Assembly: GCA_963847625.1 (NCBI GenBank)
Contig: CAWKAR010000041.1
Location: 1-64,000, forward strand
Source: a candidate division FCPU426 bacterium
GTDB lineage: Bacteria; Oederibacteriota; Muellerivitia; Muellerivitales; Muellerivitaceae
Direction of reading: 5' to 3'
Length of the DNA: 64,000 nt
Position numbers and translations under genes: made by a program. Shown here piece by piece: positions 18,904 to 37,786 of this stretch. The notes beneath the pieces were generated by a model. That model was not told the origin of the DNA. It did not search any database and saw only the letters and a list, made by a program, of their open reading frames with translations. Within the stretch, counting starts at the first letter, position 1. Each line of letters begins with the position of its first letter.

Positions 18904-18913
18904 AGGAAATCCT

Positions 18914-19321
18914 ATGAGTAAATACTTCGTTTTCTTAATTCTAGGCCTGATGGTGGGCCTAGCCGCCGGTTCTTGGACCATGCGGGTTTATTACGACCGC
19001 ACCCTGGGGTCTTGGAACCCCGCCGACCGTCTCTTGGCGCAGTTGGACCAGGACCTGAAACTCACCCCAGACCAACGCCTCAAGGTGGCGGATATTTTGG
19101 CCGCGCAAAAGGACCGTATGGAAGAATTGCGCCGGCAGTGGAAATTCCAGGTGGGCACCCTGGACCGGCAGGGGGAAGACGCCATCGCGAGGATCTTGAC
19201 GCCAGAGCAGGCCGACCAGTTCACGAAAATCAACGACCGCATCCACGGCCGTATGGACCGTTTCCTCTGGACCACCGAATCCGGCCCGACCGCCATTGCC
19301 GTAGGTCCCTCCGGGAAATAG
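18914..19321 (+). CDS. Membrane-anchored periplasmic helical protein (Spy/CpxP-like), third gene of the ECF module
   Basis: N-terminal hydrophobic anchor; LKLTPDQ and ILTPEQ motifs. Confidence 0.7.
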   Translation: MSKYFVFLILGLMVGLAAGSWTMRVYYDRTLGSWNPADRLLAQLDQDLKLTPDQRLKVADILAAQKDRMEELRRQWKFQVGTLDRQGEDAIARILTPEQADQFTKINDRIHGRMDRFLWTTESGPTAIAVGPSGK

Positions 19322-19372
19322 GGAAAACCCTCAAGTAATCCTGGCATTTTTTAAGATTTTTACCGTGCCGAT

Positions 19373-19400
19373 GACACTTCGAGGATTTGCTTCGTCTAAT
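19373..19400 (+). promoter_or_regulatory. Putative ECF promoter
   Basis: GACAC-N15-CGTCTAAT, 46 nt before ATG 19447. Confidence 0.75.
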
Positions 19401-19446
19401 TGGCGCTGTTGATAGAACGTGTTTTTCATCTTAATGGAGGTGTGTT

Positions 19447-20526: not shown

Positions 20527-20540
20527 TTCATCATGAAATT

Positions 20541-20577
20541 AAAACCCCGGGTTCACACCGAATCCGGGGTTTTTTTA
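20541..20577 (+). terminator. Intrinsic terminator
   Basis: aaaaccccgg...ccggggtttt followed by T-run. Confidence 0.7.
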
Positions 20578-20689
20578 TTTCAAACCCGAAAGGAGGTACA
20601 ATATGGCCTCTTCTTGGTTTTACATGCATCATTTAAGGAAGCGTCGGTTCCGGTATTTTTCTTGCCCCGGCCAAGAATAAAGGAGTTCT

Positions 20690-22735
20690 TTGGACATTCC
20701 TTTGAAAATAAATTATCCCGCATATTTCCTGATTTTTTCCGCCACAAACGCGCTTTTGTCTTATACATCCTTTCAGATTGAAACCAAGCTGTGGATTGGC
20801 CTCATTGGCTTTGCGGTCCCTTTTTTCTTCGGGCTTTTGACGACCCTGAGAAAGTCTTCAGAGAGTGTTGATTTTTGCTCCAAGGAATGGATGACTTCTA
20901 TTCCTGGATGGGCCTGGGTCGTCATCATCGTTTTGGCTCTTCCGATGAGGTTTTATTGCCTTTTCAACTCGAACTGGCTGGTTTCAGACGAGGGAGTTTT
21001 TGGATTTTTGTCCCTGGAACTCAGCCGGAAATGGAACTGGCATTTAGTTTATTCCGCTCATGGCCAGATTCCGCCCCTTTTCAATTGGCTGCTCGCCCTC
21101 TATTTCAAGCTGGTTACTCCAACGATCCTTTCTATGCGATTTTTCATATTTACGCTTTCCCTTCTGTCCTTGATTTCCTTTTACCTCACCGCAAATCTCT
21201 TCTTCCGGAAAACCCTTTCGTTCTTGTGCTTTTCTTTATTCTGTTTCGGGTTTTGGCCTCTTTTTACTTTTAAGTTTGTTTATTACTTTTCCGCGGCTCT
21301 TTTATTCCAAATACTGGCCTTTTGGGCGCTGGGATCATGCCTTCGTTCCAATCCCGCTTCAATTGGCTTCGCACTATTGCTCAGTATTTTATTGGGCTTG
21401 GGTTTGTGGGTCTCCATTTCCTGGCCGTTGCTTTTGTTGATGGTCATTGTGCCTTTTGTCTTGAAACGGAAGGCATTTTTTCTTGAGCACGGGTTTTGGG
21501 TTTCCCTCAGCCCTTTGGGTCTTTTCCTCGGGGTGTTTTTGGCCTGCTTATTTTTTGAAAACAACCTCCAACATATCCGTTGGCTTTTAGTGAACGAATC
21601 AACGACAAATGTCTATGGACGATTGCCAAGCCTGTTTTCAAATTGGACGACACTTTTCTGGGAAGGGCATCCTCACAATTCGCTCGGGCCGTCCTGGGGA
21701 GGGATTCTGAACCCCCTCGAGGGAGCGGCCTGTTTATTAGGAATCCTGGAATTGATCAAATATAGAAAAAACAGATTTTCCCAATGGTTGATGGCTGCGG
21801 CGATGGTATTTGCTATTCCGGGCTTGTTAACCAACAATTATGAGTCTTTCCATAATCACCTTCTTCTGCCCGTTCTCATTGGAGTATGTGCTTTGGGAAT
21901 CCAAGCTGTGCTTTTGGAACTGCCTAAGCCTTTTAGATGGATCCTGCTTTTGATTTTTTTTCTATTCTCCGCGTCCCTTAATGCTTTTCATATCCTTCAA
22001 TCCGACAATCCGGCTGTTTATTCGGAGGATGTTTGCCAGCGAGCCTACCGAATATTAAACCACCATGCCAAAACCTTTGGGCCGGGCTTGGTTTTTCAGG
22101 ATATGGACTTGAATATGGATGACCAAACACTGACCCTGGCGTCGTATCACTGGAATGCCGCTCAAAATCAAAAGTTGGATCCTTTCCGCGTTCACTGGTC
22201 CGCTGTAATCGTTAATTCAAATTATAAATATTTTTTATCCCGTCGTTTCCCCGATATCCAGTGGTATTCGCTGGGCCCGGACGCTGTTTGGAACCTAGGA
22301 GGCCTTCTGTTGGCGATCATTCCCCAGACCCGTTCTAATGAAGGTGACATGCGGGAGTGGAATTTGTTCAATCTCAAATTACACGGCGTCACAACGCGAT
22401 TCTTCTTCGACCATAGTGCATCTCAAACAAAATCTATTTTTTCCCAACTTTTGGAATTGGAGGACCAGGCCGGGAAAGACCCATTTTTGGAATCTATTTT
22501 TTGCGAGAAGGTCATTTTCTATCTGCGGAATTCCGAGAATCCCCTCAACTTGTTGCCCTGGATTCAAAAAGCTGTCCAAAAGGGATATCCCGCGCCCCAC
22601 CTTTTGGTGGCGGAAGGGCTTCTCCTTCAAGCGTTGGGAAATCATAGCCAGGCCAAAGCCGCCTTCCAAAAGGCGGTCCAATGCCCTTTGAATGACACCC
22701 GGGCCAAAGATTTACTGGCGGCATTAAGCCGTTAA
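20690..22735 (+). CDS. Polytopic GT-C-fold glycosyltransferase (ArnT/PMT-like) with C-terminal TPR-like helices
   Basis: RF..L....L.SDEG loop, PPLFNWLL, SMRF, many TM segments; AT-richer than flanks; start uncertain. Confidence 0.65.
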   Translation: MDIPLKINYPAYFLIFSATNALLSYTSFQIETKLWIGLIGFAVPFFFGLLTTLRKSSESVDFCSKEWMTSIPGWAWVVIIVLALPMRFYCLFNSNWLVSDEGVFGFLSLELSRKWNWHLVYSAHGQIPPLFNWLLALYFKLVTPTILSMRFFIFTLSLLSLISFYLTANLFFRKTLSFLCFSLFCFGFWPLFTFKFVYYFSAALLFQILAFWALGSCLRSNPASIGFALLLSILLGLGLWVSISWPLLLLMVIVPFVLKRKAFFLEHGFWVSLSPLGLFLGVFLACLFFENNLQHIRWLLVNESTTNVYGRLPSLFSNWTTLFWEGHPHNSLGPSWGGILNPLEGAACLLGILELIKYRKNRFSQWLMAAAMVFAIPGLLTNNYESFHNHLLLPVLIGVCALGIQAVLLELPKPFRWILLLIFFLFSASLNAFHILQSDNPAVYSEDVCQRAYRILNHHAKTFGPGLVFQDMDLNMDDQTLTLASYHWNAAQNQKLDPFRVHWSAVIVNSNYKYFLSRRFPDIQWYSLGPDAVWNLGGLLLAIIPQTRSNEGDMREWNLFNLKLHGVTTRFFFDHSASQTKSIFSQLLELEDQAGKDPFLESIFCEKVIFYLRNSENPLNLLPWIQKAVQKGYPAPHLLVAEGLLLQALGNHSQAKAAFQKAVQCPLNDTRAKDLLAALSR

Positions 22736-22780
22736 AATCAGGATTGTTGCAGGTGTTTTCGGGCTTAACTTTAATTGAAT

Positions 22781-22808
22781 GACACTTATTGCGAAATCCT
22801 CGTCTAAT
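22781..22808 (+). promoter_or_regulatory. Putative ECF promoter
   Basis: GACAC-N15-CGTCTAAT, 50 nt before the GH5 ATG. Confidence 0.75.
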
Positions 22809-22858
22809 GAAGCGCTAAACCTTTTCATCAACAACTCCCAACACCAGGAGTATCCATC

Positions 22859-23899
22859 ATGAAAAAAATCCTTTTGCGGGCGGCCGGGTTGTGCTTATTG
22901 GCAACCCTGGCCGAAAGCTGCATGCACGGCTCGGTCCGGATGAACGCGGCCCCCACTTCCCTGGTGTCCCTCCGGGTCCAGGGAAACCATTTTGTGGATG
23001 CGAACGGAAACACGGTGGTCCTCAAGGGCCTGAACCTCTGCTATCCCTCCATCCTCCAGCGGGAAGGCCATTGGTCGGAGGATTACTTCAAACAAGCCGC
23101 GTCCTGGGGCGCGCGGCTGGTACGCGTTCCCATCGATCCGGGCAGTTACAGGAAAATCGGCAAGGAAAAGTACCTGGCCGTGCTCGACCAGGCGGTGGAA
23201 TGGTCGAAATCACAGGGGATGTACGTGATGGTCGATTGGCATTCCATCGGCAATCCTATTTCCGGGATTTTCCAGGAACCATGGCAGGAAGAAATGCGGA
23301 CAACCTTGCCGGAAATGAAGGAATTCTGGGCCGCGGTCGCGGACCGGTATAAGGACGAGCCGGCCGTGGCCTTTTACGAGATTTTCAACGAGCCGGCCGC
23401 CATGGATTGGAAAGGCGGGCATTTGGCCTGGTCCCAATGGAGGGACATGGCGGACGGGATCATCGACGTCCTATACGCCCACAATCCCCGGGCCATCCCC
23501 GTGGTGGGGGGCCTCCAATGGGCCTACGACCTGAAAGGCGCCGCCGCCGAGCCGCTGCGAAACCGGGGGATCGCATTCGCGGCCCACCCCTATCCCGGCC
23601 ACGCGCCCAAGGCGGTTTGGGAGGAAACCTGGGAAAAGGATTTTGGGTACCTGGCCAAGGATTATCCGGTGATATTGACCGAGTTCGGCTTCGACCCCCA
23701 TGACACGGTGATGCCGAGCGTCTATCAGGCCGATACGGATTATGGCCGCCGCATCCTGGCCTTCGCGAAAGAAAGGGGCATGTCCTGGACGGCGTTCGTT
23801 TTCTACAACGGCCCGGGTTGGCCCATGCCGCTCTTCAAGGACTGGAACTATACTCCCACCGAATCAGGATCTTTTTTCAAGGAGATGCTGAACCAGTAG
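22859..23899 (+). CDS. Glycoside hydrolase family 5 (cellulase-like), probable lipoprotein
   Basis: VRVP, VDWH, YEIFNEP (acid/base), HPY, ILTEFG (nucleophile); signal ending in Cys. Confidence 0.9.
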   Translation: MKKILLRAAGLCLLATLAESCMHGSVRMNAAPTSLVSLRVQGNHFVDANGNTVVLKGLNLCYPSILQREGHWSEDYFKQAASWGARLVRVPIDPGSYRKIGKEKYLAVLDQAVEWSKSQGMYVMVDWHSIGNPISGIFQEPWQEEMRTTLPEMKEFWAAVADRYKDEPAVAFYEIFNEPAAMDWKGGHLAWSQWRDMADGIIDVLYAHNPRAIPVVGGLQWAYDLKGAAAEPLRNRGIAFAAHPYPGHAPKAVWEETWEKDFGYLAKDYPVILTEFGFDPHDTVMPSVYQADTDYGRRILAFAKERGMSWTAFVFYNGPGWPMPLFKDWNYTPTESGSFFKEMLNQ

Positions 23900-23928
23900 C
23901 GCCATCGCTTAAAAGGGGACCAGCGCTT

Positions 23929-26157
23929 TTATTGACTCGAAAGGTATCCCGCGCAGAACACAAGCGCAGCGGTTTCGGAGGTTTCCCCCTCGTTGGAGGC
24001 CCAGGAGCCGTTCGTGTTGTTGGCGTCCACGAAACACTTGGCGGGCGGAGTGCCTCGGTTGATGACGGAAACCAACAGGGTATCGGCTCCCGTGGGATAT
24101 TCATTGGGTCCGCCTGAAACCCAGCCAGGCATGAGTTTCCCATAGTCATGGCTGGTCCAGTGCCAGGGATGCGCCGTGGAGCGGGTCCCATGGCCAGTGA
24201 CGAAGGAAAAGCCCAGGCTGTTCTCGCCCAACAGCCAGTCCATTTGCCTCAGGGCCGCCTCGCGGTACAGGGCGTTGCCCGTGGCCTCGAAACCAAAAAG
24301 AAGCAGGTTGGCCTTGTCCAAAAGGTTTTCGTTGGATTCCCACCAATACTCGTTTGCCGCCTGGACCACGCCGTAGCCGTTAGCCTGGGACGCCTTTACC
24401 AGGCTGTCGCAAGCCTCGGCAAGCGCCTTTTGGATCCCCTCCTTCAAGGGAGCCGGTGCCTTCGGGTCAAAACACAGGGCCATGTAGCCGAAAAACTGGG
24501 GTTCCATCCAACTGCCCTGTTTGAGATTTCCCAACGGTGCCTCCTTCCCGAAACGTTCCAGCAATTGGGGGTCCCCGGTCACCCGGGCCATTTCCCCCAG
24601 GGCCCAGATTTTTTCCTGGGAAGGATCCGTGTCCAGGTAGTCGGTATCGCGCTCGACCACGTTCGGGTTTTGCTCCAGCCATTTCCATGCTTTGTTGGCG
24701 GCCGCGAGGCACTTGCGAGCGTAGGCGGGGTCGGCCTCGCGGAAGGCCCGGGAGGCCAGGCACAGGGTCCCCACGAAGTCGGCCGCGTCGATGGTTCCGG
24801 GTTTCTTGTAGTACCGGGGAAAAGGGTCCTTTTCCGGCACGGTCCCGACGCAAAAGTGGTCTTCCGCGTCCACCTTGTGCAGGACGCTTCCGTCGGGCCT
24901 TTGCATCTTGAGCATCCAGTCCAAGCCCCACCTGGCCTGGTTGAGCAGGTCGGACATTCCATTGGAGGACTCCGGGATATTGATCTTCAAGCCGGCCATC
25001 TGTTTTTCCTTGAACTCGTAAAGCCACAGTATCCAGGAACAGCTGAGGCCCTCCTCCAGCACCCACTTGCCGTAATCGTCCGCGTTATGCCACCCGCCGG
25101 TTAGGTCTAGGACCTTGCCGTCCTCGTGGGACGGCGCGTCCTTCAGGTGGCAGGGCGGATGCTTGATGCCGGTCACGGGATCGTCAATGGCGGTGCCGCA
25201 ACGGATGACGTAAAAGGACCGCAGGGCGTCCTTGAAGAGTGGAAGATAGACCGAGGGGCCGACCTCGAAGGGCTGGGACTTGAGGCCGCCCACTTCCACG
25301 GTGTAACGGCCCGGACGGGTCAGGCCCGAAAAATCCACCTGGAAGACCTTCTCGCCCGTGGAGGGCGTGTCGTCCACCGCGTCCATGCGCAGGGTTCCGG
25401 TATAGGCTGTCTTGCCCGCCTCGTCCAGGATCTTGAAACGGTCGCCCAGTTGGGGGCCGCCCTGGAATTGGGTGAGGGCGAAATATTTTTCAGCGTCCGG
25501 CAGGTAGCCCTGCTGGTTGACCTTGGGTTCCTTGAGGATGGGATTGGCCTCGGGTGGCTTCAGGCTCGCCTCGGCCTTCTTGTAAAACTCGATGCCGTCC
25601 ACGCAGATATAGCCCTTGGAACCGGCCGAGCCTCCCGCGGACCATTGGACGCCGGTGACCTGGGTGGGGTCCCAGGGTTTGTGGGTGCCCCAGGTCTGGA
25701 CCAACTGGGAAAAGGGAAGCTCGTACAATTTCCATTCGGGGGTGAACTCGATAGGGAAGCTGTAGTGGTTGTACTCAGCGCTGGTGGAAGTGAGGGGGAC
25801 CTGGCAGTTCCAAAAGCCCTCCCCCTTGGCAAAAAACCGAACCCCCTCGTATTCCGAGAGGTCGGTGGCCTTGAAAGTGGTGTTCATGCCGGCGTAGGGA
25901 TACTGGATCCCGGTTTTGAGCTCGTATTCCACCTTGGCGCAACGGGCGGACTGGTACCCCCCCTCAGTAAAGGCGAAGGGCTTCGGGAGGATGGTGGAGT
26001 ATTGGTCGCACCAGGAGGACCAGACCCCTCCCAGGGGATTGGAATTGGCCGTGCCCTGGCAGTCGTCCACCAAAAGGGAGGCGGGGGAGGGTCGGGTTAA
26101 GAACAATAGGGGAATGGAAATAAACAAAAAATTTCTAAACAGGAAATGAAAACGCAT
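23929..26157 (-). CDS. Glycoside hydrolase family 9 with N-terminal CBM11/CIA30-like and CelD-type Ig domains
   Basis: GGAGGT RBS before ATG 26157; KVNQQGYLP, DLTGGWHNADDYGK, WLLGEN...SFVTG.G, HPWH, WASNE. Confidence 0.88.
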   Translation of the reverse strand: MRFHFLFRNFLFISIPLLFLTRPSPASLLVDDCQGTANSNPLGGVWSSWCDQYSTILPKPFAFTEGGYQSARCAKVEYELKTGIQYPYAGMNTTFKATDLSEYEGVRFFAKGEGFWNCQVPLTSTSAEYNHYSFPIEFTPEWKLYELPFSQLVQTWGTHKPWDPTQVTGVQWSAGGSAGSKGYICVDGIEFYKKAEASLKPPEANPILKEPKVNQQGYLPDAEKYFALTQFQGGPQLGDRFKILDEAGKTAYTGTLRMDAVDDTPSTGEKVFQVDFSGLTRPGRYTVEVGGLKSQPFEVGPSVYLPLFKDALRSFYVIRCGTAIDDPVTGIKHPPCHLKDAPSHEDGKVLDLTGGWHNADDYGKWVLEEGLSCSWILWLYEFKEKQMAGLKINIPESSNGMSDLLNQARWGLDWMLKMQRPDGSVLHKVDAEDHFCVGTVPEKDPFPRYYKKPGTIDAADFVGTLCLASRAFREADPAYARKCLAAANKAWKWLEQNPNVVERDTDYLDTDPSQEKIWALGEMARVTGDPQLLERFGKEAPLGNLKQGSWMEPQFFGYMALCFDPKAPAPLKEGIQKALAEACDSLVKASQANGYGVVQAANEYWWESNENLLDKANLLLFGFEATGNALYREAALRQMDWLLGENSLGFSFVTGHGTRSTAHPWHWTSHDYGKLMPGWVSGGPNEYPTGADTLLVSVINRGTPPAKCFVDANNTNGSWASNEGETSETAALVFCAGYLSSQ

Positions 26158-26207
26158 TAATGGACCTCCTGGAATGAGGGCGGTTTCATGAACTATGGAC
26201 ATCGCCT

Positions 26208-26236
26208 ATTAGACGGTAATTTGAGTCGTAGGTGTC
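26208..26236 (-). promoter_or_regulatory. Putative ECF promoter
   Basis: Minus strand GACAC-N16-CGTCTAAT, 50 nt before the GH9 ATG. Confidence 0.75.
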
Positions 26237-26390
26237 GGGAAATTTTTCCGGGGATTCAACCGCGGCCACGCTTTAAAAATGCCCTTCTTCCCTTGCTTGC
26301 CGGGGCGTCCCCTCATTATGATGCCTCTCATTCAATCCCTGCCGTAAAGCCGTTAAGGTAATCCCATTCTTTCGGACCGGGGGAGGGTTC

Positions 26391-27323
26391 ATGGCCGGAT
26401 TGGCCGATCAAGAAACCAATAACACACTGGATACCGCGGGCGTCGCGGCCGGCATCCGCCGGCGGGTCCTGGAACACACCCTCCGCAACAACGGGGGTTA
26501 CCTGAGCCAGGCCTGCTCCTCGGCCGAGATCCTCGCCACGCTTTACACCCGCGTCATGAAATTGGGTCCTGTGCCTGTCCCCATCAAACCCGCCCCCTTC
26601 GCGGGCGTGCCTGGCGACGGCAATCCCGATTACCGCCGGGGCGACTTCTACAACGGCCCGAAAGGGAAGGATCTGGACCGGTTCATCCTTTCCCCCACCC
26701 ACTATTCCCTCGTGCTTTACGCCACGCTGGTGGAGACCCGCCGCATGGACGAGGAGGGTTTCAAGGATTTCAACAAGGACGGCGGCATCCTGGAGATGAT
26801 CGGCGCCGAGCATTCCCCCGGCATGGAAGTCATGACCGGCTCCCTCGGCCAGGGCATCAGCCAGGCCGCGGGCATCGCCTTGGCCCGACGGCTCAAGGGC
26901 GACACCGGCAAGGTCTGGGTCTTCATGTCCGACGGCGAGCTCCAGCCGGGCCAGGTCTGGGAAGCCCTGCAAACCATGAGCTATTACAAGCTGGACAACA
27001 TGGGAATCTACGTGGATGTGAACGGCCAGCAATGCGACGGAAAAACTTCCGACGTCATGGGTTTGGAACCCCTCCAGGCGCGCTTCGAGGCCTTCGGCTG
27101 CGCCGCCTACCGGGTCAACGGCCATGAACCCTCGCAACTGGCCGCCCCCGCCCTGGCGCCCCATCCGGGCAAGCCCCTGGTGGTGCTTTGCGACACGATC
27201 CCCTGGAAGGGCATGGACCCCTTGAAGAGCCGGGCCCCTAAATTCCATTACATGCGCTTCAACAGCCCCGGGGAGCGAAAGACCTACGAGGAATACCTCA
27301 AGACCCTGCCGGGAGGGGGCTGA
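26391..27323 (+). CDS. Transketolase-like protein, N-terminal ThDP-binding subunit, divergent active site
   Basis: DRFILS..H, TGSLGQG, SDGE...GQVWEA...VDVNGQQCDG. Confidence 0.88.
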   Translation: MAGLADQETNNTLDTAGVAAGIRRRVLEHTLRNNGGYLSQACSSAEILATLYTRVMKLGPVPVPIKPAPFAGVPGDGNPDYRRGDFYNGPKGKDLDRFILSPTHYSLVLYATLVETRRMDEEGFKDFNKDGGILEMIGAEHSPGMEVMTGSLGQGISQAAGIALARRLKGDTGKVWVFMSDGELQPGQVWEALQTMSYYKLDNMGIYVDVNGQQCDGKTSDVMGLEPLQARFEAFGCAAYRVNGHEPSQLAAPALAPHPGKPLVVLCDTIPWKGMDPLKSRAPKFHYMRFNSPGERKTYEEYLKTLPGGG

Positions 27324-27325
27324 CC

Positions 27326-28333
27326 ATGGAAATCCTCTCCCGGGTGCACGCCAAGAAACTGGTGGAATGGGCTTTCGACAAGCCCGAGGTGGTGGTGTTT
27401 TCGGCTGACCTGACCTCCTCCAGCGAGGCGGACCTGTTCAAGAACGCCTATCCCCAGCGGTTCTTCTCACTCGGCATCGCCGAGCAGAACATGATGAGCT
27501 TCGCGGGCGGCATGGCCCGGGAAGGCTTTGTGCCCCTCGTGCACACCTTCGCGGTCTTCATCTACCGGCGCGCCTACGACCAAGTGGCCATATCCATTGC
27601 CTATCCCAACCTGCCGGTCAAGATGTTTGGGTTCCTGCCGGGCATCCTTTCCCCAGGCGGTGCCACCCACCAAGCCATCGAGGATATTTCACTCATGCGG
27701 TCCCTGCCGAACATGACGGTGCTGGAGGTGGGGGACGCCACGGAGGCGGAGTCGGTCCTGGAAACGGCCTACCGCGTGCCGGGCCCCGTTTACGTGAGGG
27801 CCCTTCGGGGGGAAGTGCCCCGCCTTTTCAACGCCTCGGAACCCATGGTGCTGAACAAGGCGAGGCGCCTGAGCACGGGCCAGGACCTCGCGCTCTTCAC
27901 CTCCGGCATCTGCACCGAGGAAGCGTGCAAAGCCGTCGAGGTGTTGAAGGCCAAGGGGGTGTCCATCGAGCACCTTCATGTTTCCACCCTGAAACCCTTC
28001 ACGGACCCCCAGGTCGTGGAGGCCCTATCCAAAGTAAAACTGGGCGCCATCACCCTGGAAAACCACACGATCATCGGCGGGCTGGGCACCTCGGTGGCCG
28101 AGGTCATCGCCGAAAAGGGGCTTAAATGCAAACTGGTCCGCATGGGCATCCAGGACCGGTTCCTCCACGGCGCCAGCCGGCCCACCCTGGCGAAAGAAAA
28201 TAAGATGGACGGCTTGTTTTTGGTCCGGGAAATTGAAAGTATTACGGGGAAGTCCTTTGGGATCACCCGGGAAGACCTGGGGTCGGTGCACCTGACCCCC
28301 GTCCACAGTGATTCCAAGGCGGAGGCGCTTTAA
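27326..28333 (+). CDS. Transketolase-like protein, C-terminal subunit
   Basis: ADL..S, GIAEQNM, TFAVF..RAYDQ, GATHQAIED, ENH.IIGGLG. Confidence 0.88.
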   Translation: MEILSRVHAKKLVEWAFDKPEVVVFSADLTSSSEADLFKNAYPQRFFSLGIAEQNMMSFAGGMAREGFVPLVHTFAVFIYRRAYDQVAISIAYPNLPVKMFGFLPGILSPGGATHQAIEDISLMRSLPNMTVLEVGDATEAESVLETAYRVPGPVYVRALRGEVPRLFNASEPMVLNKARRLSTGQDLALFTSGICTEEACKAVEVLKAKGVSIEHLHVSTLKPFTDPQVVEALSKVKLGAITLENHTIIGGLGTSVAEVIAEKGLKCKLVRMGIQDRFLHGASRPTLAKENKMDGLFLVREIESITGKSFGITREDLGSVHLTPVHSDSKAEAL

Positions 28334-29541
28334 TGGCTGAACCCCATCCTTGCAGCATTGAATTCTGCTCCAACTGCGACCGGTTCGGGGCCTGGTATCG
28401 CCTGACCGGAGACCGGCAAGAGGCCCTCACCAAGGCAAACGACCTTTGCCTGGAACAAACCGTGGAATTTCCCGCGGACCTGGTGCCGGAGGGTTTCATC
28501 AAGGACCATGTGATCGGCCAGGTTGCGGAATTCGGGCCGGACCCCAGCGCTCCGGGGGAAGCCTCCAGGGCCCTCATCACCTTCCTGAACGACGACACCG
28601 GATTCGAGCTCACCCAGGTTTTGAACGTTCTCTACGGCAACATCAGCCTGAAGAAGGGATTCCGGCTGGACCTCATCAAGGACTGCCGGAATTTCTGGAA
28701 CCGTTTCAAAGGCCCCCGGTTTGGCCGGGAAGGCCTGAGGAAGTTGCTGGGTGCGCCTTCAAGGCCGCTCCTGGCCACGGCCATCAAGCCTATGGGGCTT
28801 TCCGCAACGAAGTTGGCCGAATTGGCCGGGCATTTCGCCGCGGGCGGAATCGATCTGGTGAAGGACGACCACGGGCTGGCCAACCAGCCTTTCGCGGCAT
28901 TCACCGAGCGGGTCGAGCGTTGCGTTGAGGCTGTCCGGCAGGGATCCAAAAAATCCGGAAAGACCGTGCTCTATGCGCCCAACATCACGGCTCCCGCCGG
29001 GGAGCTGGAAGAGAGGGCCTGGTTCGCCATGGAAAAGGGGGCGGGCGCCCTCTTGATCTGCCCGGGTTTGACCGGGTTTGATTCCATGAGGAAATTGGCC
29101 GGCGACGATTCGCTTAACCTGCCCATCCTGGCCCACCCGGCCTTCCTGGGAAGTTTCGTTACCAGTCCCGATAACGGCATCTCCCACTTCGCGCTTTTCG
29201 GCCAGCTCATGCGCCTAGCCGGCGCCGACGCCACTATTTTTCCCCATAGCGGGGGACGATTCGGTTTCAGCACGGAGGAATGCCGCCGGATTTCCTTGGG
29301 GGTCGAGATGCCCATGGGACACATGAGGCCGATTTTTCCCATGCCGGGCGGGGGCATGAGCCTTCATCGGATACCCGAATTGCTGGAGTTCTACGGCAAC
29401 GAGGTTATCTTCCTGATAGGCGGCGACCTGGTCCGCCAAAGCGCCGATATCGAGGGGAACTGCAAAAAGTTCCGGGATGAGGTCGAGAAAAATTTCAAGA
29501 TCCAGAACGTCTATGAAAAGTCAAAAAAAGCCGGCGGTTAA
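28333..29541 (+). CDS. Form IV RuBisCO-like protein (DeepYkr-like, resembles 5-methylthioribulose-1-phosphate isomerase)
   Basis: EQTVEFP, GPRFG..GLR, IKPMGLS, KDDHGLANQ, AHP, GADATIFPHSGGRFGFS, PGGGMS, LIGG; TAATG coupling to the upstream gene. Confidence 0.88.
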   Translation: MAEPHPCSIEFCSNCDRFGAWYRLTGDRQEALTKANDLCLEQTVEFPADLVPEGFIKDHVIGQVAEFGPDPSAPGEASRALITFLNDDTGFELTQVLNVLYGNISLKKGFRLDLIKDCRNFWNRFKGPRFGREGLRKLLGAPSRPLLATAIKPMGLSATKLAELAGHFAAGGIDLVKDDHGLANQPFAAFTERVERCVEAVRQGSKKSGKTVLYAPNITAPAGELEERAWFAMEKGAGALLICPGLTGFDSMRKLAGDDSLNLPILAHPAFLGSFVTSPDNGISHFALFGQLMRLAGADATIFPHSGGRFGFSTEECRRISLGVEMPMGHMRPIFPMPGGGMSLHRIPELLEFYGNEVIFLIGGDLVRQSADIEGNCKKFRDEVEKNFKIQNVYEKSKKAGG

Positions 29542-29579
29542 GCGGGGGAGAAAAGGTTTTTTTGCTTTTTGAGCAAGCT

Positions 29580-29804
29580 TCAAGGGTTCGCGGAGCGGAG
29601 AATCAATTGCGCCCGGTCGAACTGGTTCGGAAACAAATCGGGCGGTACTTTTTCGGGGCCGAGTTTGGCCGCCACCATGAAGCGGGCGCAATTCTCGAAT
29701 TCCGACTTGCAAAATCTTTGTTTGTATAAGGTGCTTACCGCGGGCATGTTGGCCATCTGGTCGTTGAAAAAGATACACTTCGGAAGTCTTTGACACTCGG
29801 GCAT
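29580..29804 (-). CDS. Small Cys-rich hypothetical protein (74 aa)
   Basis: GGAGGT RBS; C..LPKCIFFND.M..MP...YK..FC......CARF.V...G...VP.DLFPN. Confidence 0.7.
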   Translation of the reverse strand: MPECQRLPKCIFFNDQMANMPAVSTLYKQRFCKSEFENCARFMVAAKLGPEKVPPDLFPNQFDRAQLILRSANP

Positions 29805-29945
29805 TTTGGACCTCCTTTTCAATCTGTTTCTTCCATCCCTCGCTTAAAATCACTTTAAAACCCAACTGAACGATAAACAAGTGGATAAACCTACGCTTTT
29901 CACAATTATCAGCCGAAATAAAATTTAAAATTGACATTTATAAGA

Positions 29946-29965
29946 ATATTAGTATTATCTTATAT
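29946..29965. promoter_or_regulatory. Putative ArsR operator overlapping a sigma70 promoter
   Basis: ATATTAG-N6-CTTATAT imperfect inverted repeat; TTGACA at 29931. Confidence 0.55.
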
Positions 29966-29982
29966 ATGAAGGGACGAATAGA

Positions 29983-30267
29983 GTGAAAACAGCCCATATC
30001 CATCAAGCGGCGCACTGCGTGAAGGCCATCGCGCATCCGATCAGGCTTTCGATCCTGTCGATGCTGGCCGAAGGGGAGAAGAACGTGCAGGAGCTGACCC
30101 GGGGCGTGGGGACCAGCCAATCCAACATCTCCCAGCACCTGTTTCAGATGCGGGCCCGGAACATCGTGGTGACACGCCGGGAAGGCAATATGGTTTATTA
30201 CTCGATCCAAAACCCGAAACTACTCAAGCTCATCGAGCTGATGCGGGAAATTTTCTGTGAGGGTTGA
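29983..30267 (+). CDS. ArsR/SmtB-family regulator (BigR/HlyU-like)
   Basis: KAIAHPIRLSIL, SQSNISQHL, V.TRREG..VYYS; C-terminal FC. Confidence 0.9.
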   Translation: MKTAHIHQAAHCVKAIAHPIRLSILSMLAEGEKNVQELTRGVGTSQSNISQHLFQMRARNIVVTRREGNMVYYSIQNPKLLKLIELMREIFCEG

Positions 30268-30283
30268 TTTTTTTTACCCATCT

Positions 30284-30303
30284 ATATTAGAATATATTAA
30301 TAT
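30284..30303. promoter_or_regulatory. Second putative ArsR operator
   Basis: ATATTAG-N6-TTAATAT. Confidence 0.55.
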
Positions 30304-30321
30304 ACTTAAAAGGAACTGGAA

Positions 30322-30846
30322 ATGAGGGTATTAATCGGGATTTTAATCGGGTGCCTCCTGGGATTCGGCTATTACAAGCTGGTGGGTTGCCCCACAGGCG
30401 GCTGCCCCATCACTTCCAATCCCTGGACCAGCACTCTTTACGGGGCCCTGATGGGCCTCTTGATCGCGACATCCGGCGGATCTTTCGGCGCCGGCACTGA
30501 CACAAAAAAGGAGGAGACCATGAAAGACACAAAGGAATTCACGGTGCAGAACTGGGACAAGGAGGTTTTGAAATCCAGCAAGCCGGTATTGGTGGATTTT
30601 TGGGCCCCTTGGTGCGGTCCCTGTCGGATGCAAGGCCCCATTGTGGAGCAGTTAGCCAAGGACATGGGCGATTCGGCGGTAATAGGGAAGCTCAACAGCG
30701 ACGACAATCCTGAAATTGCCGCGCAGTACGGAATCCGGGGCATTCCCACCTTGATGGTTTTCCTCAACGGCAAACCCAAGAGGACCTTTGTGGGCGTGAC
30801 CCAGTCCGAGGCGCTCAAGGCGGCCTTGCAGGAAGCGCTGAATTGA
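30322..30846 (+). CDS. trxA: Thioredoxin with fused N-terminal DUF6132-like membrane domain; internal start at 30520 likely
   Basis: GC.TG.CPITSNP domain, then VDFWAPWCGPC and GIPTL; AAGGAGG before ATG 30520. Confidence 0.85.
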   Translation: MRVLIGILIGCLLGFGYYKLVGCPTGGCPITSNPWTSTLYGALMGLLIATSGGSFGAGTDTKKEETMKDTKEFTVQNWDKEVLKSSKPVLVDFWAPWCGPCRMQGPIVEQLAKDMGDSAVIGKLNSDDNPEIAAQYGIRGIPTLMVFLNGKPKRTFVGVTQSEALKAALQEALN

Positions 30847-30962
30847 AAAATGAATCCGCACTGGGGGCAGTCAAGGGGGGCCTGCCCCCAACCCTTTCCT
30901 CATAGGAGGCGGGGTAGGTTATTTTCATGTGATGAGATTCAACTAGTTATACTAAGGATTGC

Positions 30963-31430
30963 ATGAGTCGAAAAACTGATTTTTTATCAAAAAATAACCG
31001 ATGGGGAAAATCCTTGTTATGGGTCCCGACGGTCCTACTCTTGCTAAGTTTTCTTGGGGCCGGCATGGCCCTCGCGAAAGACAAGGCAAAACCCAGGCAG
31101 TCGGGCGTAATGATCTTAACGGCCGCCAACTGGAATAAAGCCGTGCTTAGGGTCAAGAAACCCGTTCTGGTGGACTTCTGGGCCACCTAGTGCGGCCCTT
31201 GCCGGATGCAGGGACTCATCGTGGAAAAAGTGGCGCAGGAAATCGGGGACAAGGCGTTGGTGGGCAAGCTCGACACCGACGATAACCGGGAAATCGCAGC
31301 CAGGTACGGGATCATGTACATTCCAACCTTGATAGTTTTCAAACACGGTAAAATCCAGGCGCGTTTCACTTCGGTGACAAGGGGAAGCACCCTCCTGGCC
31401 GCGCTTAGGAAGGCAAGGAAAAAACCATGA
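30963..31430 (+). pseudogene. Signal-peptide-bearing thioredoxin interrupted by in-frame TAG at the W of WCGPC
   Basis: VDFWAT-TAG(31188-31190)-CGPCRMQGLIVE...IPTL, all in one frame. Confidence 0.75.
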
Positions 31431-32077
31431 AGCAGTCCTCGGAACAAATGCAACGTGATTTCGACAAAGAAGCCTCATCCTGGGACGAGAATCCGGGGCG
31501 TGTGAAGCTCGCGGCGGACGTGGCGGAGGCTATCAAGAACCATGTGCCGATCAGGAACGACATGGATGTTTTGGATTTCGGCTGCGGAACCGGGTTGGTC
31601 ACGCTCCATCTCCAACCCCTCGTGGGAACCATCACGGGCATGGACAGTTCCCAAGGCATGCTCGGGGTCCTGCGGGATAAGGCCGAAAAAAGGGGATTGA
31701 AAAACGTAAAAACCAAATTCCTGGACTTGGAAAAGGGCGGTGTGCTGGAGGGCTGTTACCACCTCATTGTCAGCAGTATGGCCCTGCACCACGTTCCGGA
31801 AACGGCCGAGTTGATTTCGAAGTTCCACGCAATTTTAAAGCCAAGAGGGGTCCTGGCCCTGGCGGACCTGGATCCGGATGGGGGGCTCTTTCACGAGGAC
31901 AACACCGGGGTTTTCCACCAAGGTTTCGACCGCTCGGAACTGGCATCCATTTATCGGCAGGCGAGTTTCGAGAATGTCCAGGATTGGACGGCGGCCCAGG
32001 TGGTGAAACCCGCGCCCAGAGGCGGGACCAGGAATTTCACGGTGTTTCTCATGACCGGCGATAAAAAAGGCCGGTGA
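31427..32077 (+). CDS. Class I SAM-dependent methyltransferase
   Basis: FDKEA..WD, VLDFGCGTG, SSMALHHV, LKP.G.L.LADL. Confidence 0.9.
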   Translation: MKQSSEQMQRDFDKEASSWDENPGRVKLAADVAEAIKNHVPIRNDMDVLDFGCGTGLVTLHLQPLVGTITGMDSSQGMLGVLRDKAEKRGLKNVKTKFLDLEKGGVLEGCYHLIVSSMALHHVPETAELISKFHAILKPRGVLALADLDPDGGLFHEDNTGVFHQGFDRSELASIYRQASFENVQDWTAAQVVKPAPRGGTRNFTVFLMTGDKKGR

Positions 32078-32129
32078 ACGGTTCTGGAAACTGAAATTTT
32101 GATATGAATTCAAACGGGGAGGAGAAAAA

Positions 32130-32321
32130 ATGAAAAACGTGGGATCTTACGACAGGTTGATCCGGTTCATCGCGGCGGGCGTCCTGATCGCCGACGGTTT
32201 TTTTGAGGCGGGAACAACCAGGTACGTCTTGTGGGCTGTTTCGCTGATACCTTTAGCCACCGCCACCTTCAGGTTTTGCCCCTTATGGGTGCCGTTCAAG
32301 ATCAACACTTATAAAAAATAA
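32130..32321 (+). CDS. DUF2892 (YgaP-like) small membrane protein
   Basis: MKNVG..DR.IR...L.TA...FCPL...FKINT; GGAGG RBS. Confidence 0.85.
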   Translation: MKNVGSYDRLIRFIAAGVLIADGFFEAGTTRYVLWAVSLIPLATATFRFCPLWVPFKINTYKK

Positions 32322-32621
32322 GCGATTGGATTAAAGACCCAATAACACTAACCGGTTTTTCTTCGATCGTTCCCAAGGCCTGGAACCTGCTGGGAGGTTA
32401 CCTTTCCTATTTGCGCCTTTATCCCCAAGGCCCGGTTGCGAATTAGAAAAATCATCGTATCTTCAATAACTCTCCCCGTTTTTCCTAAAAAAGATAATAT
32501 AAAAACAATTTAGCAGCAATAAAGACGGCTCGCGGTTTGTTTGCCGGACCCTTCGGCGATTTCACCGGCAGTTTCGTTATCTGTTCGATCAAACTTGGGG
32601 ACCCACTCGTTCTTTTTCCAT

Positions 32622-33530
32622 TTAAGCGAAAAAAGTTTTCGGGTTTTCGCAGGTTTCCACTTCCGGCTCCAAGGTAACGTGCTGGATGCCCCACTTCTCA
32701 TGCAGGTATGTTTTGAGGCTCTTGATGAGGCCGGCCACGGCTGAAGCGTCGGTTTTAGGGTTTACCACGACATGGGCCGTGAAAAGGCGTTGACCAGGGC
32801 CGTTTTCCCAGAGATGGACATGGTGAATGTGGATACCCGGGAACACCAGGGCCACATCCTTGGCCACTTCCCCCGAATCCATATCGTGCGGAACCCCCTC
32901 CAAGAGGGTTGAAAATGTCATGCGCAGGAGCCTGAAAGCGCCGAAAAATATCAAGAAACCGATAGCTAACGCGGTGAACGGGTCCAGCCAAGGTCCTGCC
33001 GCGGTGCGGGCGAACAATGCCGCCATCACCACGGCAAGGGAGGAAAGGGTATCCTGGATCATATGAAGGAAGGAGCTTCGCACGTTGACGTCGTCGCGGT
33101 CGTGACGGCGCAGCAGTAGCACCGACCCCGCGTTCGCGGCCAGCGCCAACAGGGCCACCGTTAACATGATGCCTTGGGAGGGCGGGTGAGGTTGACACAG
33201 CCTTTGGATGACTTCCCGGGTGATAAGAGCGGCTATGACGAAAAGGACGACGGCGTTGGTGGTGGCCGCGATCACCTCCGCCCGCTTGAAACCATAGGTG
33301 TGGCGGGAGGTGGCCGGGAGGCGCCCGATCCGGCGGGCGCTAATGGTCAGGAGAAGGGCCACCACGTCCCCGAAATTGTGCGCTGAATCCGAGAGGAGCG
33401 CCAGGCTCCCCGAGAAAAGGCCGCCCAGGAGTTCCCCCAAGCTGATGGCCGAGTTCAGGAGGAAGGAAATCCAAAGCCTTCGGTCGAGGTTCGGGTGGAT
33501 GGGAGGTTGCGGTTCATGGACATGGCTCAT
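32622..33530 (-). CDS. Cation diffusion facilitator transporter (CzcD/ZitB-like)
   Basis: SLALLSDSAHNFGD, TYGFKRAE, LH...D, HHVHLW, HVTLE. Confidence 0.9.
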   Translation of the reverse strand: MSHVHEPQPPIHPNLDRRLWISFLLNSAISLGELLGGLFSGSLALLSDSAHNFGDVVALLLTISARRIGRLPATSRHTYGFKRAEVIAATTNAVVLFVIAALITREVIQRLCQPHPPSQGIMLTVALLALAANAGSVLLLRRHDRDDVNVRSSFLHMIQDTLSSLAVVMAALFARTAAGPWLDPFTALAIGFLIFFGAFRLLRMTFSTLLEGVPHDMDSGEVAKDVALVFPGIHIHHVHLWENGPGQRLFTAHVVVNPKTDASAVAGLIKSLKTYLHEKWGIQHVTLEPEVETCENPKTFFA

Positions 33531-33594
33531 GGCGGCCTACCTTCATACGGTTGGATTTTCTTTCCCCGATATTAACGGATGAAGAAAGAAAAAC

Positions 33595-34410
33595 CTAAAA
33601 ACCTTCGGCTACGATCTTGATGCTGATGGTGGGATCTGCCTTCCTGCGCTTGTAAACGACTTCTTCCATATCCTCCAGGACCGGGACCACCGCCTCGCCC
33701 GCGCCGATCAGGCTCAAGTGGGCGGATTTCAAGGTGCCGGGATAGCTGTGAAGACCCGCGAAGTGCTTGGGGGACTGGTGGATGTAGGTATAGCCCTGGG
33801 GATCGTAGCGGCAGGCGGATTCGATCACCGGCTTCTGTTCGCCTTTGTTCAAGGCCTTCGTCAGCATGACTTCCAGGCTGTCCTCGTCCAATCGACGATC
33901 TGAAATGTCGAAAAACACGGAGGATACGCAATAATTCTTTTTAGGCGCCAAACGGAACTTTTTAGACGCCTCTTGGACCGAATGGAACAACTTTTCGGGT
34001 TCCTCCTGATGAGCCATTTCCTTGCTGACGATCTCGCTCAAGCTGACGGTCTTCACCGGTTCCCCAATGATCTGGTTGCTTCTTTCGAACATCAGCTTTC
34101 CGTCCTTTTCGGGACTGCAGGTATAGAGTTCGTCAATCAACTTTTTAGACGCGGGGTCGTATATTAGGACCCGGTGGGACTCCGAAAGGATCCAGGAATA
34201 TTTCAACACATCCTCCGCTCCCACATTCCCGAGGCCGGGATAGGGGACAAAATCCAGGATAATGAAATTGTTTTTCAGGACTGTTTCAGTGCCGAATTCT
34301 AGCAGAGCTGAACACCGTTTTTTCACGTCCCCGGGGAAAGAGACGTTCTCATAAACCGAGAAAAGACCCGTGCCTTTGGCGTATTTTGAATCATCAAAGG
34401 ATTCAATCAT
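33595..34410 (-). CDS. Hypothetical protein (271 aa)
   Basis: Long ORF co-oriented between the NifX-like and CDF genes; no recognised motif. Confidence 0.6.
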   Translation of the reverse strand: MIESFDDSKYAKGTGLFSVYENVSFPGDVKKRCSALLEFGTETVLKNNFIILDFVPYPGLGNVGAEDVLKYSWILSESHRVLIYDPASKKLIDELYTCSPEKDGKLMFERSNQIIGEPVKTVSLSEIVSKEMAHQEEPEKLFHSVQEASKKFRLAPKKNYCVSSVFFDISDRRLDEDSLEVMLTKALNKGEQKPVIESACRYDPQGYTYIHQSPKHFAGLHSYPGTLKSAHLSLIGAGEAVVPVLEDMEEVVYKRRKADPTISIKIVAEGF

Positions 34411-34473
34411 TGGGTTTTTGCGCGGCCTTTCTTAAACGGTTGGGAATGTGCGTTATTCAAAGCAGATTCATTT

Positions 34474-34872
34474 TTAGTGTTTGGAACACTGTGAGGACGA
34501 ATAATCTTGTCCGGCCCCATGGCCGCCGCAGCATTCCGCCATGGTCGCGGCCTGGAGGCTGTTTGATTTATATCCCGTGACGACTTCTCCCACCGTGCGG
34601 TGTTCGGAAATAAACACCTGGATACCGGCGGCTTGGAGTTTGTGAAGGGCCCCCTTTCCAATGCCCCCAACCACGACGCCGTCGACAGTTTCGCCGGATA
34701 GCGATTGGACGGGCCGGCATTCCCCGTGCTCGTGGTGTTGTGACTGTGGGGGGAGAGAACGGCAATTTCCGCTTTCAGTATCAACGATCAGGAATTGGGG
34801 AGCGGAGCCGAAATGACGGCTGATCTCGCTTTGAAGACCATTGTTTTCTTGGACTGGAATGCAGAGTTTCAT
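34474..34872 (-). CDS. NifB/NifX-family (FeMo-cofactor-binding-like) protein
   Basis: MKLCIP, HFGSAP.F.IVD, GGIGKGA..KL...GI; His/Cys-rich tail; AAGGAG RBS. Confidence 0.85.
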   Translation of the reverse strand: MKLCIPVQENNGLQSEISRHFGSAPQFLIVDTESGNCRSLPPQSQHHEHGECRPVQSLSGETVDGVVVGGIGKGALHKLQAAGIQVFISEHRTVGEVVTGYKSNSLQAATMAECCGGHGAGQDYSSSQCSKH

Positions 34873-34913
34873 GGGGTTGACTCCTTTGAAAAACAGATTC
34901 AATCAAATCTATT

Positions 34914-34929
34914 ATGAGCATATGTTCAT
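34914..34929. promoter_or_regulatory. Near-perfect palindrome, candidate DUF134 operator
   Basis: ATGAGCAT-ATGTTCAT upstream of the NifX-like gene. Confidence 0.55.
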
Positions 34930-35029
34930 TACGGTCAAGGGAAAAATTCGGAGCATTGTATATTTTGGGTAGATATGGGAAATAATAGAAAAAGGTAAAA
35001 GGTTAGGAACATTCAGGGATGTAAAAGGG

Positions 35030-35335
35030 TTACTTTGTTTTTTGTGACGAATTTTTAATTTCTGCCTGAATTTGAAGGGCATTACCCTTGACCAGGGCCG
35101 AGGCGACTTTCTTTCGGGCCGACTCGAGGATGCGCCCGAAAGTGGGACGGGAGATACCCATTTTTTTCGCGGCCTTCTCGTGGTAAAGGCCCTCGTAATC
35201 GGCGAGGCGCAGGGATTCCATTTCATCGGCTTCCAAGCGGATTTCCTCCAACTCGTCCATTGGAATGCCCCGGGGCTTGAAATAATTCGAGTCGGGGCGG
35301 CATTCGATGCGGCGTGGGCAGCGTGGTCTGGGCAT
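35030..35335 (-). CDS. DUF134 (UPF0251) HTH protein
   Basis: MPRPRC.R.I...P...YFKPRG, E.E.LRL.D.EG, AA.KMGISRPTF.RI..SARKKVA.ALV.G. Confidence 0.9.
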   Translation of the reverse strand: MPRPRCPRRIECRPDSNYFKPRGIPMDELEEIRLEADEMESLRLADYEGLYHEKAAKKMGISRPTFGRILESARKKVASALVKGNALQIQAEIKNSSQKTK

Positions 35336-35654
35336 GTTTTCTCCGGCGCCTATCATAAACCGGCGCGGAAAAACCGCAAGGGGCCGCCTGAAAAACTGTG
35401 TGGGGCGACTATTCCGAACCAAACCAGAAATGATTCAACCTGGTCAGTGGAAGACCGAATTCATTGCTTGCACAAGGCGATGATCTCTGGTATGAAAAAC
35501 AGGTTGATTGGGTCCGCCGGCGGCAGGACCGGCGCGCCCAAGAGGATTATCTCGGCGACTTCCCCGCGCAAACGGCCCGGGTTCCCACCCGCCGCTAGAA
35601 CACCCACCCCCAGCGCCGAAGACCTGAACCTGCCCATGAAAGGAAGTCCATCCT

Positions 35655-36830: not shown

Positions 36831-36948
36831 AAAGGGTTTCTCCGGCAATTTTGCGGCCGGACCCAATTGATAAGCCGGTCAAACTCCATCCGCTAACCCG
36901 GTTCCAGGAGGCCGCTAACGCTTTAAAATTCAGGTTGAAAGGCTGCCT

Positions 36949-37780: not shown

Positions 37781-37786
37781 TACCAC

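Follow-up and report, generated by a model that had tools for sequence, protein, structure and literature searches.

A RuBisCO-like protein paired with a remodelled split transketolase: a conserved gene module and candidate cupin-independent branch of S-adenosylmethionine by-product salvage

The subject of this study is a three-gene operon in a 64,000-nucleotide stretch of DNA (hereafter the window: positions 1 to 64,000 of contig CAWKAR010000041.1, assembly GCA_963847625.1) from a candidate division FCPU426 bacterium, which encodes the two halves of a split, transketolase-like thiamine enzyme and a Form IV RuBisCO-like protein (RLP). By the comparisons set out below, the RLP and the transketolase form a conserved module, in some cases as a single fused protein, and the operon likely represents a cupin-independent branch of the salvage of the sugars of methylthioadenosine (MTA) and 5'-deoxyadenosine. 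Our leaning, held with somewhat more belief than doubt, is that a DeepYkr-type RLP isomerises 5-methylthioribulose-1-phosphate, and probably its 5-deoxy analogue too, and that the thiamine enzyme would then cleave the product between C2 and C3. An earlier note, made from the letters of this DNA, had proposed that the enzyme may transfer or cleave a two-carbon unit from a 1-deoxy or 1-methylthio ketose phosphate made by the RLP; the comparative evidence supports that reading, within which the chemistry of the thiamine enzyme is what we infer. The features of the operon are as follows.

26379..26387, + strand: purine-rich stretch resembling a ribosome-binding site, 4 nucleotides 5' of the first start codon (read directly)
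26391..27323, + strand: transketolase-like N subunit (thiamine-diphosphate/PP domain), 310 residues; Pfam PF00456 Transketolase_N, E 1.1e-19
27326..28333, + strand: transketolase-like C subunit (Pyr and C-terminal domains), 335 residues; Pfam PF02779 Transket_pyr and PF02780 Transketolase_C
28333..29541, + strand: Form IV RLP, 402 residues, 3qfw type; Pfam PF00016 RuBisCO_large, 116 bits

The three open reading frames (ORFs; window 26391-29541; 310, 335 and 402 residues) lie on one strand and are separated by a 2-nucleotide spacer and then joined by a 1-nucleotide overlap, in keeping with the tight coupling that the earlier note had described, and all of the motifs that it had quoted were found in the translations (GGYLSQ, EMIGAE, SDGE and PGGATHQ in the transketolase, KDDHG and IFPHSGGRFG in the RLP).

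How general the arrangement is became apparent when a single genome of each prokaryote species was scanned, which produced at least 586 confirmed relatives of the RLP. The best 80 of those loci were examined by fetching 8 kb, calling crude ORFs as neighbours (the longest non-overlapping ones of at least 90 residues), clustering these and annotating the representatives. At least 2.3 kb of DNA was present upstream of the RLP in 63 of the 80, and both transketolase genes were located directly upstream on the same strand in 46 of the 63, at a median of 39 nucleotides from the RLP match. Two of the 63 had the C subunit only and 15 had neither subunit; a C subunit beside the RLP with no N subunit nearby, despite ample upstream DNA, was the arrangement in a Thiomargarita and a Thermoguttaceae genome (L046 and L010). 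The 17 loci with short upstream DNA divided into eight with transketolase pieces and nine with none. Judged by the titles of their records, the carriers belong to the Chloroflexota, Bacillota, Spirochaetota, Planctomycetota, Nitrospirota, Myxococcota, Verrucomicrobiota, Elusimicrobiota and Pseudomonadota. Closer to home, among 41 kin genomes including that of the window, the RLP (E up to 1e-60) occurred in ten and the N subunit (E up to 1e-50) in nine, all nine being within those ten, and the N subunit was found in none of the 31 RLP-less kin genomes; the tenth RLP-bearing genome is 65% complete, and its RLP is 1.1 kb from a contig end. Physical fusions extend the association. The N and C subunits were on one chain in two loci, and of eight proteins found to be longer than the RLP, five join Cupin_2 to the RLP, two join the RLP to a transketolase and one joins the RLP to another domain. 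NCBI assigns one of the two RLP-transketolase proteins to the diatom Skeletonema marinoi, and the fusion P0129 retains the stretches GGY, ELIGAEHSPG and TPGGVTHQ. Such RLP-transketolase fusions argue for consecutive steps.

The RLP itself could be typed by its solved relatives. The best of these was 3qfw (E 5.1e-67), followed by 4nas (4e-46), with the MtnW enolase structures at 1e-37 to 5e-40 and the Photo-type RLPs at about 5e-34. For 3qfw the structure search gave no more than a molecule name; we take it to be the DeepYkr-clade RLP of Rhodopseudomonas palustris. The window RLP scored under the cut-offs of the MtnW models TIGR03332 and NF007095 (156.7 versus 513.6 and 218.9 versus 409 bits) and of the apionate OiaX model NF042437 (72.8 versus 700 bits), and it was far under every cut-off of the form III, form I/II and bona fide RuBisCO models, i.e., there was no carboxylase-grade match. 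All 77 columns that are conserved at 93% or more among 73 related RLPs are kept in it. The likeness to DeepYkr RLPs that the earlier note had read from motifs is supported by this ranking, the match to 3qfw (E 5e-67) being far closer than that to the MtnW, Photo or apionate types. RLP1 of R. palustris is a demonstrated 5-methylthioribulose-1-phosphate 1,3-isomerase (PMC5893883). The window RLP is likely of the DeepYkr type, with 5-methylthioribulose-1-phosphate as its likely substrate and 5-deoxyribulose-1-phosphate as a probable second one.

The partner of the RLP is a thiamine enzyme whose closest solved relative, for the N subunit (E 7.3e-38) and the C subunit (1.9e-57) alike, is the split transketolase of Carboxydothermus hydrogenoformans (6yak/6yaj). 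The two enzymes have the two-gene architecture, the thiamine-diphosphate motif, the activating glutamate and His115 in common; they differ in that the window enzyme has Tyr37, Ile137, Leu104 and Pro110-Gly111 where its relative has His, His, His and Glu-Asp, and in an additional loop of roughly 25 residues (62-88 of the N subunit), which is conserved. These assignments were made by pairwise alignments and by a 30-sequence profile alignment to solved transketolases (6yak and human transketolase), and the two approaches agree. In both, His37 of the human enzyme corresponds to Tyr37 of the N subunit and His110 to Ile137, human His37 and His110 being equivalent to yeast His30 and His103, the ligands of the donor C1 hydroxyl. 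His77 of the human enzyme corresponds to His104 of the N subunit, so that a histidine is kept there, and the N subunit also keeps His286. Alignment of the C subunit to 6yaj placed Leu104 at the histidine of the ATHAG stretch and Pro110-Gly111 at the Glu-Asp of EDG, with His115 kept, so that the EDG(P/A)(T/S)HQ stretch of transketolases reads PGGATHQ. The sites of Gly111 and Leu104 are presumably those of yeast Asp477, which contacts an aldose hydroxyl, and His469, which contacts the phosphate. This remodelling on the aldose and phosphate side goes beyond what the earlier note had spotted. The cofactor machinery is intact (S180-D-G-E ... N211 in the N subunit and the activating Glu53 in the C subunit) and conserved in the family.

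The changes are a property of the family and not of one sequence. Tyr37, Ile137 and His141-Ser-Pro-Gly were each present in all 45 N subunits compared and Ser180 in 44, position 104 was His in 35 sequences and Gln in ten, and Leu104, Pro110, Gly111 and Gly112 of the C subunit were each at least 95% conserved among 46 sequences. An alignment check on the donor histidines came out in favour of the earlier note, with both ligands of the C1 hydroxyl lost across the whole family. Of the transketolase changes that it had listed, those at the two donor histidine sites (Tyr37 and Ile137) and PGGATHQ were confirmed by alignment, and the change of GDGE to SDGE proved not to be distinctive, because the paralogues on contigs C24 and C33 of the same genome also begin this motif with Ser; SDGE or SDGD is present in its ordinary transketolase paralogues. 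By these alignments, the thiamine enzyme keeps its cofactor machinery without the residues that hold the donor C1 hydroxyl.

The genome of the window provides its own controls. It encodes elsewhere two full-length transketolases (contigs C24 and C23), another split one (C33) and, on contig C60, a true DXS (845.6 bits), and because of these the RLP-transketolase module cannot be regarded as housekeeping. The histidines of GH, GH and GHP are retained in the paralogues on C24, C23 and C33, which also lack the 62-88 insertion, and the Asp at the Gly111 site is kept in the C24 transketolase and in the C60 DXS. The split pair on C33 (C33:114275-115449) is transketolase-like; its N-terminal histidines are kept, it has GVMGATHH where transketolases have EDGPTHQ, and its N-domain match spans one TGA. 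In NCBIfam, the N and C subunits of the operon scored 151.8 and 186.2 bits against the 488 cut-off of NF004559, a model of the whole, unsplit transketolase; the N subunit falls under every NCBIfam transketolase cut-off, and no protein of the operon reaches the cut-off of any NCBIfam equivalog. DXS also handles a 1-deoxy ketose phosphate, has a RAYDQ stretch in common with the C subunit, and its structures matched the C subunit at 2.7e-33, nearly equal to human transketolase at 3e-30. In contrast to a DXS, however, the C subunit is under the cut-off of the DXS model TIGR00204 (168.7 bits, and 19.9 for the N subunit, versus 465.95), and the Arg and Asp of DXS are absent at the Leu104 and Gly111 sites.

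On the reading that we favour, the RLP would convert 5-methylthioribulose-1-phosphate to 1-methylthioxylulose-5-phosphate, and the 5-deoxy analogue to 1-deoxyxylulose-5-phosphate (DXP). The thiamine enzyme would cleave this product between C2 and C3, releasing glyceraldehyde-3-phosphate and leaving a two-carbon unit on the cofactor. From the 1-deoxy substrate the two-carbon unit would leave as acetaldehyde. For the methylthio substrate, the continuation that we prefer, and offer tentatively as an argument by analogy, is that the carbanion on the cofactor loses methanethiol in a beta-elimination like that of phosphoketolase, which would give acetyl-thiamine-diphosphate and from it acetate or acetyl-phosphate; the methanethiol could be returned to methionine through O-acetylhomoserine sulfhydrylase. 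The enzyme would then be a thiamine-diphosphate C-S lyase that converts 1-methylthioxylulose-5-phosphate to glyceraldehyde-3-phosphate, methanethiol and an acetyl unit, which is possible though in our view some way short of probable. Phosphoketolase proceeds by beta-elimination to acetyl-thiamine-diphosphate. The likeness to it is in the proposed chemistry only, in which acetyl-thiamine-diphosphate would arise by elimination of a group that is beta to the carbanion on the cofactor, and no membership by sequence is claimed; phosphoketolase keeps active-site histidines that the window enzyme lacks.

Two known routes are the natural points of comparison. In the MTA-isoprenoid shunt of Rhodospirillum rubrum and R. 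palustris (MtnP, MtnA, DeepYkr RLP and a cupin methylsulfurylase), the RLP is likely of the same type (nearest structure 3qfw), KDDHG and the conserved columns are common to the window RLP and the cupin-linked RLPs, and the genes for the preceding steps, mtnA with or without mtnK, are in related clusters. The operon differs from that shunt in that no methylsulfurylase-type cupin was found in the window or the assembly, a remodelled split transketolase being in its place (46 of the 63 testable loci), and in that the expected products are a triose phosphate and a two-carbon unit, not DXP; the thiamine enzyme would thus take the job of the cupin methylsulfurylase by different chemistry. The dihydroxyacetone phosphate (DHAP) shunt (MtnK/MtnP, MtnA and the class II aldolase Ald2) is alike in its input sugars and first steps, and a class II aldolase is in the cluster of three related loci. 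It is unlike the proposed route in that cleavage here would come after isomerisation by the RLP and be carried out by a thiamine enzyme, and no class II aldolase was found in the assembly of the window. A complementary distribution of the class II aldolase route was also considered and set aside, as Aldolase_II was present in 37 of the 41 kin regardless of the RLP, making the test uninformative.

In some other genomes the pair has salvage genes as neighbours. Within 8 kb, mtnA was present in ten of the 80 loci and mtnK in eight; nine of the transketolase-bearing loci had mtnA in the fetched DNA and seven of the nine also had mtnK. The earlier note had suggested looking for mtnK and mtnA beside homologues of the RLP, and in those seven loci both are clustered with the pair. 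The order importer-mtnK-mtnA-N-C-RLP was observed in several (L022, L034, L035 from Chloroflexus sp. MS-G, L076 from Alicyclobacillus sp. ALC3 and L080 from a Pseudovibrio sp.). Further recurrent neighbours were parts of ribose-type ABC importers, an LsrF-like class I aldolase/thiolase (five loci), a short-chain dehydrogenase/reductase (SDR; nine), a Zn-dependent alcohol dehydrogenase (three), a class II aldolase (three), O-acetylhomoserine sulfhydrylase (three) and a homologue of ribulose-phosphate epimerase (two). The epimerase homologues fit the mixed xylulose/ribulose product that is known for the RLP of R. rubrum (PMC6302742).

A Cupin_2 gene was beside the RLP in four transketolase-less loci, as in the MTA-isoprenoid shunt, and the N subunit was encoded in none of the four genomes of these cupin-linked loci and elsewhere in the genome in eight of the 20 other transketolase-less genomes. 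The RLPs linked to cupins are nested among those linked to transketolases in a maximum-likelihood tree built by a quick method, and the two groups have the same conserved columns, so that the chemistry of the RLP is probably the same with either partner. The earlier note had remarked on the absence of an adjoining cupin methylsulfurylase, and this held: the flanks in the window contain no Cupin_2, and a cupin profile built from the four RLP-adjacent cupins (positive controls four of four) gave only 23-bit generic matches in the whole assembly and nothing in five other kin that carry the RLP-transketolase pair. In 46 transketolase-linked genomes (four further loci were left out) the same profile gave a strong, near-full-length match in two and a weaker, partial one in six, so the two partners are, by this survey, largely and not strictly alternative. 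One of the two strong cases is a family relative (L087, G005:C10, 4178-13502), in which the cupin has a sulfate-type binding protein on one side and an O-acetylhomoserine-sulfhydrylase-like gene on the other. Its cluster encodes a TonB-dependent receptor, the sulfate-type binding protein, Cupin_2, the O-acetylhomoserine-sulfhydrylase-like enzyme, a CoA-binding protein, a porin and a second binding protein, and appears to be a set for scavenging sulfur, present alongside the RLP-transketolase pair.

Several observations weigh against the favoured reading and have to be set beside this evidence. The replacements at Leu104 and Gly111 would be unexpected if plain glyceraldehyde-3-phosphate leaves the enzyme, and the remodelled aldose and phosphate side is therefore compatible with a different substrate or mode of binding; more generally, we infer both the substrate and the products of this transketolase family. 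The RLP was typed by the ranking of its structural relatives, and the maximum-likelihood RLP tree holds no named reference RLPs. Within 8 kb, mtnA was in only the ten of 80 loci mentioned above, and IF-2B-family genes are near-universal with or without the RLP (47 of 50 transketolase-linked genomes, 40 of 40 kin and nine of 14 control genomes), so that co-occurrence with mtnA carries little weight. A search for Rfam elements upstream of the operon and of nine mtn-linked loci found no SAM (S-adenosylmethionine) riboswitch. Strict exclusivity of cupin and transketolase was ruled out by the two strong and six weak profile matches in the 46 genomes. In the window, the genes that flank the operon are cellulase genes and not salvage genes, and in its assembly, which is 93.9% complete, no IF-2B/MtnA, MtnK, MTAP or MtnN gene, nor any PNP_UDP_1 gene, was found.

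The last of these points has a plausible explanation in the assembly itself. In a same-genus genome, mtnA is beside a gene of the purine-nucleoside-phosphorylase family, in the block SecD-SecF-YggS-ProC ... phosphorylase-mtnA-GGDEF-FlgB-FlgC-FliE-FliF-FliG-FliH, and a genome of the same family has the SecD ... FliH block too. When the 18 ORFs of the same-genus stretch were compared by tblastn with the assembly of the window, 14 had no match and four matched elsewhere at 36-43% identity; the unmatched ORFs include those for SecD, SecF, ProC and the flagellar proteins, and YggS is likewise without a counterpart. That housekeeping genes of the block have no counterpart implies that one or more contigs with housekeeping genes are missing from the assembly, and for the same reason the possibility that the pathway is absent from this organism was set aside. 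The missing salvage genes most likely reflect an assembly gap and not a missing pathway, a case from gene order that is strong but unproven.

Three other explanations of the pair have to be considered. The one that survives best, although we think it unlikely, leaves the enzyme at the same position in the pathway and makes it a simple lyase, which would split 1-methylthioxylulose-5-phosphate into glyceraldehyde-3-phosphate and free 2-(methylthio)acetaldehyde (and DXP into glyceraldehyde-3-phosphate and acetaldehyde) with the C-S bond unbroken, the aldehyde then being reduced or oxidised as in the DHAP shunt. The loss of the ligands of the C1 hydroxyl fits a lyase equally well, the SDRs in nine loci and the Zn-dependent alcohol dehydrogenases in three could serve it, and its products would mirror those of the DHAP shunt, a pathway outlined in PMC5893883. 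Such a lyase would, however, duplicate the class II aldolase route, whose aldolase is encoded in the same cluster in three loci, and would leave the sulfur unrecovered unless a further enzyme exists.

A little less credible still is that the pair acts on some other sugar phosphate, unrelated to the by-products of S-adenosylmethionine (a plant-derived or branched pentose), or that the thiamine enzyme takes 5-methylthioribulose-1-phosphate in parallel with the RLP. The RLPs of the apiose pathways indicate that other substrates are possible in the family (PMC6302742), and the location of the operon beside GH9, GH5 and CBM11 genes, the lack of mtn genes in the assembly and the remodelling of both ends of the substrate site are all compatible with a different sugar. 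Against this, the cellulase neighbourhood is lineage-specific, whereas mtnK, mtnA and sugar importers adjoin the pair in other phyla; the RLP is far from the OiaX cut-off; and the RLP-transketolase fusions speak for consecutive and not parallel steps.

The most doubtful proposal is a true transferase, which would take the two-carbon unit, 1-deoxy or 1-methylthio, off the RLP product and hand it to an aldose acceptor, forming a longer 1-deoxy or 1-methylthio ketose phosphate (e.g., one like 7-deoxysedoheptulose): transfer is the ancestral reaction of the family, His115 and His286 are kept, and a Synechococcus study (bioRxiv 10.1101/2020.12.30.424818) is said to have found deoxy-sugars made by transketolase from 5-deoxyribose, but the Asp and His that bind the hydroxyl and phosphate of the acceptor are replaced by Gly111 and Leu104, transfer would not dispose of the by-product, and the related loci have no recurrent downstream genes for such a product.

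The favoured reading, isomerisation by the RLP and then C2-C3 cleavage by the thiamine enzyme, would place the module in the handling of methylthioadenosine and 5'-deoxyadenosine, by-products that S-adenosylmethionine chemistry cannot avoid forming and that are inhibitory. To our knowledge, how anaerobes recover the sulfur and carbon of these by-products is only partly known. No paper that connects an RLP with a transketolase in this salvage emerged from full-text literature searches, the key RLP work of 2007-2012 being outside their reach, and it is likely that what is known is the front end (MtnK or a phosphorylase, MtnA and the DeepYkr RLP) and that the thiamine-dependent back end is undescribed. 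The window contributes the module in its smallest form, of three genes, together with controls from paralogues and from the phyletic pattern, a second group of remodelled residues and the observation that cupin and transketolase are largely, though not strictly, alternative partners. If the favoured reading is true, a missing branch would be added to the map of S-adenosylmethionine by-product salvage, DeepYkr-type RLPs would have a second and commoner partner than the cupin, and the transketolase family would gain a new reaction type, with a residue signature (Tyr37, Ile137, Leu104 and Gly111) that is usable for annotation. Should the more tentative C-S lyase reaction also be true, it would constitute an oxygen- and glutathione-independent salvage of methionine and carbon, extending from anaerobic bacteria to diatoms, in which the RLP and the enzyme are fused. 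The current labels of these proteins, "transketolase" and "ribulose-bisphosphate carboxylase", mislead surveys of carbon fixation.

A spacer of 188 nucleotides separates the operon from a divergent GH9 cellulase gene, and no sigma-70-like promoter was scored, and none was convincing, in that spacer 5' of the operon. The upstream flank (window 17870-26202) encodes an ECF sigma factor, a zf-HC2 anti-sigma factor, a CBM11 protein, a 681-residue protein without a family, a GH5 cellulase and the divergent GH9 cellulase, and the downstream flank has thioredoxin, methyltransferase and cation-efflux genes. A GH9 gene adjoins the RLP-transketolase pair in one other locus, L008, and only there, and the cellulase region is syntenic in the same-genus genome, whose RLP region matches the window at approximately 85% nucleotide identity; the cellulase neighbourhood is, on this comparison, lineage-specific synteny. 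An Rfam search of window 20000-40000 (E up to 0.1) found no element. A look for expression data over window 26200-29700 turned up no RNA data set, just four DNA entries of small share from one study. Among the nine mtn-linked loci the sole Rfam matches were group II intron domains (RF02001, RF01998 and RF00029) in a Bacillota locus (L041, 11548-13343), a few kb 3' of the RLP.

Two further regions of the window deserve mention. A Cys/Met-metabolism enzyme dependent on pyridoxal phosphate is encoded at window 35655-36830, 6 kb 3' of the RLP and with no shown operon link to it; its best matches are cystathionine gamma-synthase family models, under their cut-off, and a closer homologue of O-acetylhomoserine sulfhydrylase is on contig C34 of the same genome. 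Far upstream, window 776-8627 contains very large overlapping ORFs (1765 residues on the + strand and 1131 on the - strand) with no Pfam match, in DNA of extreme strand skew (GC skew about -0.5 and AT skew about +0.5), and an ORF at 6012-8627 has FlgD_ig and a CHU_C type IX secretion signal. Repetitive DNA like that of 776-8627 is present on many contigs of the same genome and also in the same-genus genome.

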